Below are positions 36,371-39,300 of a DNA stretch of 64,000 nucleotides, piece after piece. The stretch lies in NCBI RefSeq assembly GCF_988243305.1, contig NZ_OZ547136.1. One strand, 5' to 3'. Every line of letters starts with the position of its first letter. Position 1 is the stretch's first letter. The position numbers were made by a program.

Positions 36371-39300
36371 TTATACATATCACTCTAAAATGTTTTTTCA
36401 ATGTTACCTAAAGCGCGATTCTTTGCTAATATGTTCGATAACGAACATTTGTGAGCTTTAACGAAAGTGAATGAGGGCAGCATGGAAACCAAAGATCTGA
36501 TTGTGATAGGTGGCGGCATCAATGGTGCTGGTATCGCGGCAGACGCCGCTGGACGCGGTTTATCCGTGCTGATGCTGGAGGCGCAGGATCTCGCTTGTGC
36601 GACCTCTTCCGCCAGTTCAAAACTCATTCACGGTGGCCTGCGCTACCTTGAGCACTATGAATTCCGCCTGGTCAGCGAGGCGCTGGCTGAACGTGAAGTG
36701 CTACTGAAAATGGCCCCGCATATCGCCTTCCCGATGCGTTTTCGCCTGCCGCATCGTCCGCATCTGCGCCCGGCGTGGATGATTCGGATTGGTCTGTTTA
36801 TGTACGATCATCTGGGTAAACGCACCAGCCTACCGGGATCAACCGGTTTGCGTTTTGGCGCAAATTCAGTATTAAAACCGGAAATTAAGCGCGGATTCGA
36901 ATATTCCGACTGTTGGGTAGACGACGCTCGTCTGGTACTCGCCAACGCCCAGATGGTGGTGCGTAAAGGCGGTGAAGTGCTTACCCGTACTCGTGCCACT
37001 TCTGCTCGCCGCGAAAACGGCCTGTGGATTGTGGAAGCGGAAGATATCGATACCGGCAAAAAATATAGCTGGCAAGCGCGCGGCCTCGTGAACGCCACCG
37101 GCCCGTGGGTGAAACAGTTCTTCGACGAGGGGATGCATCTGCCTTCGCCTTATGGCATTCGCCTGATCAAAGGCAGCCATATTGTAGTGCCACGCGTACA
37201 TACCCAGAAGCAAGCCTACATTCTGCAAAACGAAGATAAACGTATTGTGTTCGTGATCCCGTGGATGGACGAGTTTTCCATCATCGGCACCACCGATGTG
37301 GAATACAAAGGTGATCCGAAAGCCGTGAAGATTGAAGAGAGTGAAATCAATTACCTGCTGAAAGTGTATAACGTGCACTTTAAAAAACAGCTTAGCCGTG
37401 ACGATATCGTCTGGACCTATTCCGGTGTGCGTCCGCTGTGTGATGATGAGTCCGACTCGCCGCAGGCTATTACCCGTGATTACACTCTTGATATCCATGA
37501 TGAAAACGGCAAAGCACCGCTGCTGTCGGTATTCGGCGGTAAGCTGACCACCTACCGCAAACTGGCTGAGCACGCTCTGGAAAAACTGACGCCGTATTAT
37601 CAGGGTATTGGCCCGGCGTGGACGAAAGAGAGCGTGCTGCCGGGAGGTGCCATTGAAGGCGACCGCGACGATTACGCCGCTCGCCTGCGCCGCCGTTACC
37701 CGTTCCTGACTGAATCGCTGGCACGTCACTACGCGCGCACTTACGGCAGCAACAGCGAACTGCTGCTCGGCAATGCGGGAGCGATAAGCGACCTCGGGGA
37801 AGATTTCGGTCATGAGTTCTACGAAGCGGAACTGAAATATCTGGTCGACCACGAATGGGTCCGCCGCGCCGACGATGCCCTGTGGCGTCGCACAAAACAA
37901 GGCATGTGGCTGAATGCGGATCAACAATCTCGTGTGAGTCAGTGGCTGGTGGAGTATACGCAGCAGAAGTTGTCGCTGGCGTCGTAAATTAACGTAAGGT
38001 GGCCAGGTCAGATTTCAATCTGACCTGAGACTGATGATAAACAAAAAAACTGCCTGATGCGCTACGCTTATCAGGCCTACGTGGTTTATGCAATATATTG
38101 AATTTGCATGATTTTGTAGACCAATAAGACGTTCACGTCGCATCCGGCATGGACAAAGCGCATATACAACCGATAACCAAAGTTGTAATTCCAGAAGTGA
38201 AATACGCCTGATCATGAGCGGGATAGAGAACAGTATCTCCCCAGAAAACTCAGCGTAATAATACAAGCAGCCAGCGCAACCACCGTCGGCCATATCAAGA
38301 ACGGTACAATAATAAAGCCGAGAAATACCACACCTAGCAGCAAAACACCGTGAATTTGTTCATCGCGCTAATTCCTTTCCCTCGAGGGTTATTTCATTGT
38401 GGGATACATCGGCACATAACCCATATTTTCCATCAAACTTTACCCTACCGATGGCTAAAAACGGGCTAATCCGATTCTGCACTGACTCACACATCACTGG
38501 TATTCCACCCGCAAAACAGCCAGGGCATTATAACGACCCGCAGCAGGGCGTCGCCCTGTGGTACTTACAGGGAGAGACAGAAAAGTCACATCTGCCGTCT
38601 GAGCTGACTCAGCCCGGTTTTCAACTAACTTAAATGGCACACCAACATGCGCAGCAAGAGCGTTCAAGTCTACGGATTCCTGTTGGCTATCCATAATCAT
38701 AATGCCAACGTCGGGGTTATCCTCCGCCTGAATAATGCTTTGCCGACCATTAACATCTCTCGTTGATGAAATATTGCCATCAAAAACCAGCGTCATTACG
38801 GCATCAATATCTTTGTTCGTACAGTTTATCGGAATAGTGGTTGCCACTGGAGAAACGCCCGTGGGCTTCACTCCAGCACCAGCCCGACTTAATTCGCTGG
38901 CCCAGACATCCGGCATATTAACGGTAAAACTAGTTCCCTCATTAATTGTGCAACCTTGTGGAACTTCAATATTTAAGTTGCCAATATAAGCATTAAATAC
39001 TGGAATTGGTCCGTGCTCTGTTGGAAACTGGCTGACATACAAAGAAACCAGCAATACGTTATTTATTGATATATCGGATATTATTTTTTTATCAAGTCTG
39101 ATTTTTATATAACCTTCTGTTCCTGAGGCCCAACTTGATGGTTTACTTCTGTCTGCTGGATAATTGGTGCTATAGTTGTCAAAAGGTACTGCCTTATCTG
39201 TCATTGTGCCATTTTTATTATAGAGCTTTACATGTGTCGAGACAGATATTTCATGAGTCAAAGGAATAAATATATCGCTCCCCTGATGATCACCAGACGC

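Follow-up and report, generated by a model that had tools for sequence, protein, structure and literature searches.

A hydrophobic short frame next to glpD in Escherichia coli is very probably part of a chimeric pseudogene scar of a three-gene module

Introduction

The type I toxins Hok, Ldr, TisB, Ibs and ShoB are the systems that come to mind when a short, strongly hydrophobic ORF lies in an intergenic-looking region, and a 43-codon frame of this kind, located between an auf-type fimbrial operon and glpD, is the subject of this work. The likeness is only superficial: The 43-aa ORF differs from these toxins in that it derives from longer genes and has no family match, no associated antisense RNA family, no promoter of its own and no conservation as a stand-alone frame.

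Relatives by descent are found at the same chromosomal locus. In E. coli O157:H7 (F8797), in B strains (T7Express) and in STEFF_1, genes for a 502-aa PstS-family protein, a 330-aa PstS-family protein and a 200-aa hypothetical membrane protein lie in this order between glgP and the convergent glpD gene; DSM 103246 has the same three genes and, in addition, an ISVsa5 transposase gene between those for the 330-aa and the 200-aa protein. The intact 200-aa proteins encoded next to glpD (WP_000981061.1 in O157:H7, WP_000981057.1 in B strains, and WP_061092826.1) share position and orientation with the copy described here. In the majority configuration (about 3,000 genomes), the interval holds the auf operon, two genes for hypothetical proteins of 236 and 255 aa and a 201-aa homolog (WP_000589347.1), followed by glpD; over codons 12-70, our copy is 75-77% identical to this variant at the nucleotide level.

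Two decayed forms have been annotated. In K-12, the three-gene module has likewise been reduced to a deletion scar at this locus, the pseudogene yzgL: A deletion of about 2.8 kb at an 8-nt microhomology has left the 502-aa gene with its first 75 codons, which now abut the terminal 60 nt of the 200-aa gene. In E. coli 118UI (NZ_CP032515.1), Eco118UI_RS27240 is identical to our locus (100% over 611 nt, same strand), and PGAP has placed there a frameshifted, C-terminally incomplete pseudogene at the equivalent of positions 38141-38355 of the minus strand; the same call was made for GN06156, ETEC6334, GN02461 and GMF065. The status as a pseudogene is thus already known from RefSeq. The annotation of Eco118UI_RS27240 covers only the part that comes from the 200-aa gene, and it omits both the lipoprotein origin of the ATG, the SD sequence and the first codons and the surviving approximately 70 nt of the 502-aa gene. 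What we add is the exact anatomy, i. e. the gene from which the ATG and the SD sequence stem, three deletions and two 1-nt losses.

Results

The window, i. e. the whole stretch of 64,000 nt from contig NZ_OZ547136.1 (assembly GCF_988243305.1) that was analysed, carries glpD on the plus strand (36467-37987), a REP/BIME element at about 38040-38150, and a seven-gene chaperone-usher operon on the minus strand that runs from 38494 leftwards and ends at glgP. This operon encodes a major subunit, a chaperone, an usher, two minor subunits, a further chaperone and an adhesin, and auf (AufA-G) is the name given to a fimbrial operon so composed in the glpD..glgP interval (PMC12928451). The auf-type operon of the window is only 73% identical to the auf allele of most E. 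coli.

On the minus strand, an ATG at 38363-38361 opens a frame that encodes MNKFTVFCC and ends after these 9 codons at a TAG (38336-38334). The sequence upstream of the ATG, GGGAAAGGA, contains the SD motif AAGGA at 38377-38373 with a spacing of 9 nt. A TTG at 38343 begins the 43-codon frame, which is shifted by -1 relative to that of the ATG and reads LLLGVVFLGFIIVPFLIWPTVVALAACIITLSFLGRYCSLSRS up to the stop that ends it at 38212. All these elements, which a sequence-only reading had reported as a candidate small hydrophobic gene with a frame discontinuity, are indeed present. When the 626 stop-to-stop segments of 40-90 aa from all six frames of the whole window are ranked by hydropathy, the 43-codon frame comes first, with a best 34-residue Kyte-Doolittle mean of 2.54 against 1.80 for the runner-up; its mean across 35 residues is 2.44, and it fits the type I toxins in size (about 20-60 aa) and hydrophobicity.

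Comparison with intact modules by blastn revealed that the region is a mosaic. T7Express served as the reference (L008; 502-aa gene 1441-2949, 330-aa gene 2975-3967, 200-aa gene 3967-4569), and the relic extends over about 38462-38155 of the minus strand, thus exceeding the span 38363-38212 of the two small ORFs. Its first piece is collinear with the module. Positions 38462-38389 are the 3' remnant, approximately the last 20-24 codons, of the gene for the membrane-anchored 502-aa PstS-family protein, as judged by the collinear alignment with STEFF_1, O157 and T7Express: The remnant reads ...ENMGYVPMYPTMK with the stop TAA at 38391-38389, and the intact C-terminus reads ...EDVGYVPLYLTME before its stop. 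In place of the rest of this gene stands the auf-type fimbrial operon, and homology to the majority auf locus stops at 38465. The remnant is followed by a 25-nt intergenic spacer (38388-38364) that has equal length and near-equal sequence in O157 and STEFF_1 and that holds the SD sequence of the 330-aa lipoprotein gene. The start codon and approximately the first 11 codons of this gene, corresponding to the n- and h-region of the signal peptide, make up positions 38363-38333. In the reference, window positions 38445-38333 correspond to 2893-3006, comprising 57 nt from the 3' end of the 502-aa gene, the spacer and 32 nt from the start of the 330-aa gene, with 82.5% identity and one gap; across the intact modules of the different strains this segment is 82-85% identical (E 1e-26 to 1e-30), and a permissive alignment that reaches 38462 gives 109 of 135 identical positions over window 38462-38332 and, in the coding part, one gap of 1 nt.

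This gap is the reported frame discontinuity. The intact 330-aa gene starts with ATGAATAAATTCACCGGTGTTTTACTATTAGGC, which is translated to MNKFTGVLLLGTALLAGC, a lipoprotein signal peptide with a lipobox that follows the established consensus. In the window, a C is missing (ATGAACAAATTCA-CGGTGTTTTGCTGCTAGGT as compared to ATGAATAAATTCACCGGTGTTTTACTATTAGG in the intact genes), and this 1-nt deletion at about 38351-38350 (TTCACCGGT -> TTCA-CGGT) makes the ATG frame end at the TAG mentioned above. The sequence-only reading had proposed a comparison with other strains for a small indel, and it is precisely a single lost nucleotide, relative to the intact lipoprotein gene, that came out. Its idea of a frameshifted small membrane protein holds as far as the frameshift is concerned, but there is no small membrane protein gene behind it, the hydrophobic stretch being codons 12-41 of the 200-aa gene. 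All that is left of the PstS-family lipoprotein are the ribosome-binding site, the ATG and approximately the first 11 codons at about 85% identity; the 1-nt deletion breaks these codons, and the lipobox has been deleted. Likewise, the DNA for the PBP_like_2 / PstS-family binding domain, which spans residues 94-306 of the intact 330-aa protein, is absent from the window according to blastn.

The second piece comes from a different gene. At 38332-38328, five bases that can be assigned to neither side mark the junction of a deletion of approximately 990 bp, by which reference positions 3007-4000 were lost; as a result, the lipoprotein gene lacks codons ~12-330, and the 200-aa gene lacks codons 1-11. 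From 38327 to 38155, the window holds codons 12-70 of the gene for the 200-aa polytopic membrane protein (WP_000981057/58/61 family), with 92.0% identity to reference positions 4001-4174, one gap, and 88-92% identity to the intact genes of T7Express, DSM 103246, O157 and STEFF_1 (E 1e-59 to 1e-69). The gap is a second frame break, a net loss of 1 nt in or beside a G-run at about 38244-38234 (CTGGGGGAAAT -> CTGGGGAGAT); past this break at about 38240, the homologous reading EILFSIPLMIRRISLLELQLWLSVVYAL runs in the third frame, within a 92-aa ORF (38293-38015). Finally, the 7-nt microhomology GCGCTTT at 38161-38155, where two blastn segments overlap, is the junction of a 442-bp deletion that removed codons ~71-200 of the 200-aa gene together with 41 nt downstream and that joins the relic to the REP/BIME element near the glpD terminator. 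Beyond it, window positions 38161-37950 are 91.5% identical to reference positions 4610-4822, the sequence 3' of the 200-aa gene through the 3' end of glpD. As for the 200-aa family in general, the relic is the last gene before the 3' end of glpD and convergent with it.

The 43-codon ORF (38343-38212) can be read off these pieces: Its translation, set against MNKFTGVLLLG... and ...PLFLGFVIVPLLVWPMVVALAACIITLSFLGEMLFS..., is a chimera in which LLLG(VV) is the signal-peptide core of the 330-aa lipoprotein, FLGFIIVPFLIWPTVVALAACIITLSFLG is the first hydrophobic segment of the 200-aa protein, and RYCSLSRS, the 8 terminal codons before the stop, is an out-of-frame tail. The ATG and the hydrophobic frame therefore trace to two different ancestral genes. 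Some members of the 200-aa family begin with MNKI or MNKF, and the ATG at 38363 was also considered as the start of the 200-aa gene; this assignment was rejected since the MNKFTGVLLLG start, the 25-nt spacer and the upstream ...GYVPxYxTM(E/K) tail with its stop are collinear with the window. Because of the same collinearity of 502-aa tail, spacer and 330-aa start, the SD sequence and the ATG are the fossil ribosome-binding site and start of the lipoprotein gene. The sequence-only reading had also named chance as an explanation, and short ORFs are indeed abundant, with 56 of at least 20 aa in a 4-kb stretch. However, the frame is the hydropathy outlier among the 626 segments, and strong nucleotide homology to coding regions from two genes (E 1e-26 to 1e-69) excludes chance, leaving this explanation with a negligible probability.

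The relic was found in 227 of 5,426 complete E. coli genomes, with every copy at least 99% identical, and the 3' end of aufG of the window type was found in exactly 227 genomes; the remnant and the aufG allele are thus strictly linked. The homology, the breakpoints and the indels are directly visible in the sequence, and the lesions are common to every sampled carrier: All indels and junctions occur in each of the five carriers compared, including one that is the most divergent in aufG (97.4%). These five differ by 2 SNPs in 371 nt, neither of them within the 43-codon ORF, a number too small to tell neutral decay from purifying selection on short ORFs. An allele that combines the window auf type with intact downstream genes, i. 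e. an intermediate, was not found.

Single-base indels at homopolymers are a common artefact, and an error of sequencing or assembly that masks an intact gene would explain the frame breaks away. Yet five complete genomes, each sequenced independently, share these indels and both large deletions, the remnant is at least 99% identical in 227 genomes, and two lesions have removed as much as ~990 and 442 bp, so that the chance of such an error is vanishingly small.

A biological use of the breaks has to be weighed as well: Ribosomes might undergo programmed frameshifting from the ATG at 38363, or the G-run might make the locus a phase-variable contingency gene. A good SD sequence and ATG do lie ahead of the first break, and the second break lies at a G-run of which both +1 (P0119) and -1 (the window) versions exist in the databases. 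Against this, the 9-codon ORF, ATGAACAAATTCACGGTGTTTTGCTGCTAG, lacks an X_XXY_YYZ slippery heptamer, the first break is a plain 1-nt deletion relative to the intact lipoprotein gene, and restoring both frames would give a fusion of about 70 residues that lacks the last 130 residues. The G-run has a length of only 4-5 nt and is G4 in all five carriers sampled. We consider the probability of either mechanism to be close to nil.

A somewhat less extreme verdict applies to the proposal that the 43-codon TTG ORF is a functional single-pass membrane peptide or a type I toxin, possibly controlled by an antisense RNA, even though we give it hardly any credence. The ORF is open and leads the 626 short frames in hydropathy, and since no terminator is predicted between aufG and the ORF downstream of it, transcription might read through. 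However, descent from a signal peptide and a membrane segment fully explains the hydrophobicity, and the ORF ends in 8 codons of out-of-frame read-through. At E ≤ 10, none of the 43-, 92- and 45-aa ORFs of the window matched a family in Pfam, which includes the Hok, Ldr, TisB and Ibs-type toxin families. An Rfam scan of 36000-41000 at E ≤ 1 gave no described toxin or antitoxin RNA family, the only match being the REP-associated ES036 at 38073-38115, and no promoter-like site was predicted near 38212-38400. The type I toxin-like gene that had been suggested from the sequence thus finds no backing in protein families, RNA families or promoter predictions. A small protein initiated at TTG or GTG, another earlier suggestion, is unlikely since the TTG at 38343 has no properly spaced SD sequence, only a GGTG 2-3 nt upstream. 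Moreover, in every non-carrier genome the DNA homologous to the hydrophobic frame sits within the 200/201-aa ORF; the frame is conserved, but only inside this longer ORF and not as a small ORF standing alone. An upstream SNP or indel alters the extent of the ORF in some carriers: A T/C polymorphism at 38370 decides whether the hydrophobic frame has its upstream stop, and the metagenomic variant P0128 has a 93-aa ORF instead. Thus, the boundaries of the ORF are not conserved.

Profile scans assigned the 502-aa and the 330-aa protein to the PBP_like_2 / PstS family. For the 200-aa protein, no family was found in Pfam, NCBIfam or PADLOC, the 16-20 bits obtained with NCBIfam being below the threshold (cut-off 120), and when 1.84 billion representatives were searched exhaustively with a profile, 42 matches were obtained, essentially one full-length cluster and fragments, with no remote family among them that would suggest a function. 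Those homologs that carry a taxon name belong to Escherichia (E. coli, E. albertii, E. marmotae and unnamed Escherichia species), to which the intact family is essentially confined, and many further matches are metagenome sequences. An AlphaFold2 model based on a 27-sequence alignment has six helices, at a confidence too low to be usable (mean pLDDT 47, pTM 0.29), and a literature search on yzgL gave nothing that bears on function. With codons 1-11 and ~71-200 gone and a 1-nt frameshift in what is left, the window holds no uninterrupted frame of about 200 codons for this family, and judged by its frames the copy cannot encode the 200-aa protein. After repair of the frames, the window peptide matches members of the family at 69-90%. 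Across 27 intact members, 22 columns are invariant, and at these the repaired peptide carries three changes (L21F, V23I and E66V), as against none in most intact members, a weak hint of relaxed constraint. Decay of the family is also seen elsewhere, i. e. in yzgL of K-12, in L009 and in the fragment products P0119 and P0124.

Discussion

Our work supports, with little room for doubt, the idea that the locus is a non-functional chimeric pseudogene scar of the three-gene glgP-glpD module. The ancestral allele would have carried the genes for the membrane-anchored 502-aa PstS-family protein, the 330-aa PstS-family lipoprotein and the 200-aa polytopic membrane protein between glgP and glpD. Five events probably led from there to the present state: (i) A diverged auf-type chaperone-usher operon would have replaced the 502-aa gene except for its last ~70 nt. 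(ii) After a deletion of ~990 bp, codon ~11 of the lipoprotein gene would have run into codon 12 of the 200-aa gene. (iii) The loss of one nucleotide in the signal-peptide codons of the lipoprotein would have broken the ATG frame. (iv) A second 1-nt loss, at the short G-run, would have broken the 200-aa frame. (v) A 442-bp deletion between the 7-nt direct repeats would have removed the last ~130 codons of the 200-aa gene. We infer the order and the number of these events from the sequence. Divergence from the reference module is greater in the 5' piece (82-85% identity) than in the piece of the 200-aa gene (88-92%).

The relic and yzgL have kept opposite pieces of the module: What survives in the window is the tail of the 502-aa gene, the beginning of the 330-aa gene and, of the 200-aa gene, codons 12-70; here, an auf-type operon has been inserted as well. 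The glgP-glpD interval, of which there are at least four configurations, is a hotspot of recombination and deletion.

The relic would most likely give no functional product. Read-through from aufG could yield at most a 9-residue peptide off the fossil ribosome-binding site. It is very improbable, if a little less so than a genuine toxin, that this site still works in the cell, with aufG read-through giving the 9-residue peptide or, via reinitiation at the TTG at 38343, the chimeric 43-residue peptide. If this were true, a micro-membrane-protein would have arisen de novo from gene debris and become fixed in the about 4% of E. coli with the window auf allele. As a gene scar, the locus has little biological weight, and its value lies mainly in annotation: What looks like a good SD sequence and ATG in front of a hydrophobic frame can be pieced together from two dead genes, and for this reason the ORF should be kept out of catalogues of small proteins and toxins.

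One observation concerns the family rather than the scar. P0101, a distant homolog of the 200-aa protein on a metagenomic contig, is preceded by a protein that shares 50% identity with the 255-aa neighbour seen in the majority configuration. Since a relative of the 255-aa protein is found next to such a distant homolog, the 255-aa neighbour and the 200-aa-type gene may form a conserved unit.

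Configurations of the glgP-glpD interval

The interval between glgP and glpD occurs in E. coli in at least four configurations, as seen from window positions 37988-46500 and the loci L002, L003 and L005-L009: (i) the yzgL scar of K-12; (ii) the module of genes for a 502-aa PstS-family protein, a 330-aa PstS-family lipoprotein and a 200-aa membrane protein; (iii) the auf operon together with genes for 236-aa, 255-aa and 201-aa proteins, present in about 3,000 genomes; and (iv) the type of the window, present in 227 genomes. Moreover, IS-disrupted and more heavily truncated variants exist beyond these four. 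The seven-gene auf-type fimbrial operon of the window (38465-46000, minus strand) was compared with the majority auf allele (L007) across 3.3 kb; at only about 73% DNA identity, it is a deeply diverged allele. This allele and the scar, the chimeric pseudogene remnant between glpD and the operon, are always linked.

Judged from an alignment with the intact module of T7Express (L008), yzgL of K-12 (L003:3030-3660) is a deletion fusion derived from the same three-gene module as the scar: Its 5' part corresponds to codons 1-75 of the gene for the 502-aa PstS-family protein (96.9% identity), and its 3' part is an out-of-frame reading of the 200-aa gene's final 60 nt. The two pieces overlap by 8 nt at the junction, and about 2.8 kb are absent relative to L008.

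Frame-changing variation at the scar and relatives of the module proteins

Frameshifts seem to recur at a short G-run of the 200-aa gene, CTGGGGGAAAT (window ~38244-38234), as judged from the window and the database proteins P0119 and P0085: One base has been lost here in the window, and the fragment P0119 reads as though one base had been gained at the same run (...SFLGGNAVLNP...). The TAG that bounds the hydrophobic 43-codon frame on its upstream side is subject to a T/C polymorphism at window position 38370 and is CAG in some carriers of the scar (L010, L011, L012 and L014 compared). In L014, a short metagenomic contig, an additional change results in a 93-aa ORF (P0128) across the scar.

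Only one distant homolog of full length is known for the 200-aa family from the sequences compared: P0101 (184 aa), encoded on a metagenomic contig (L013:121-1499). Its gene overlaps an upstream gene for a 278-aa protein, which shares 50% identity with the 255-aa hypothetical protein found in the majority configuration of E. coli, and this arrangement suggests that the two genes form a conserved unit. The 502-aa protein of O157:H7 (L006:5873-7381, minus strand) is unusual among periplasmic binding proteins in that a hydrophobic N-terminal region of about 200 residues precedes the PBP_like_2 domain (match at residues 244-482). Its C-terminal end, ...LVEDVGYVPLY, is shared with the 330-aa paralog.

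The window also contains a match to the Rfam sRNA family ES036 (CssrF) at 38073-38115 (minus strand; 43.6 bits, exceeding the gathering score). The match lies centrally in a REP/BIME repeat that has more than 100,000 matches in the E. coli genome collection, and it is probably due to this repeat and does not mark a specific sRNA gene.
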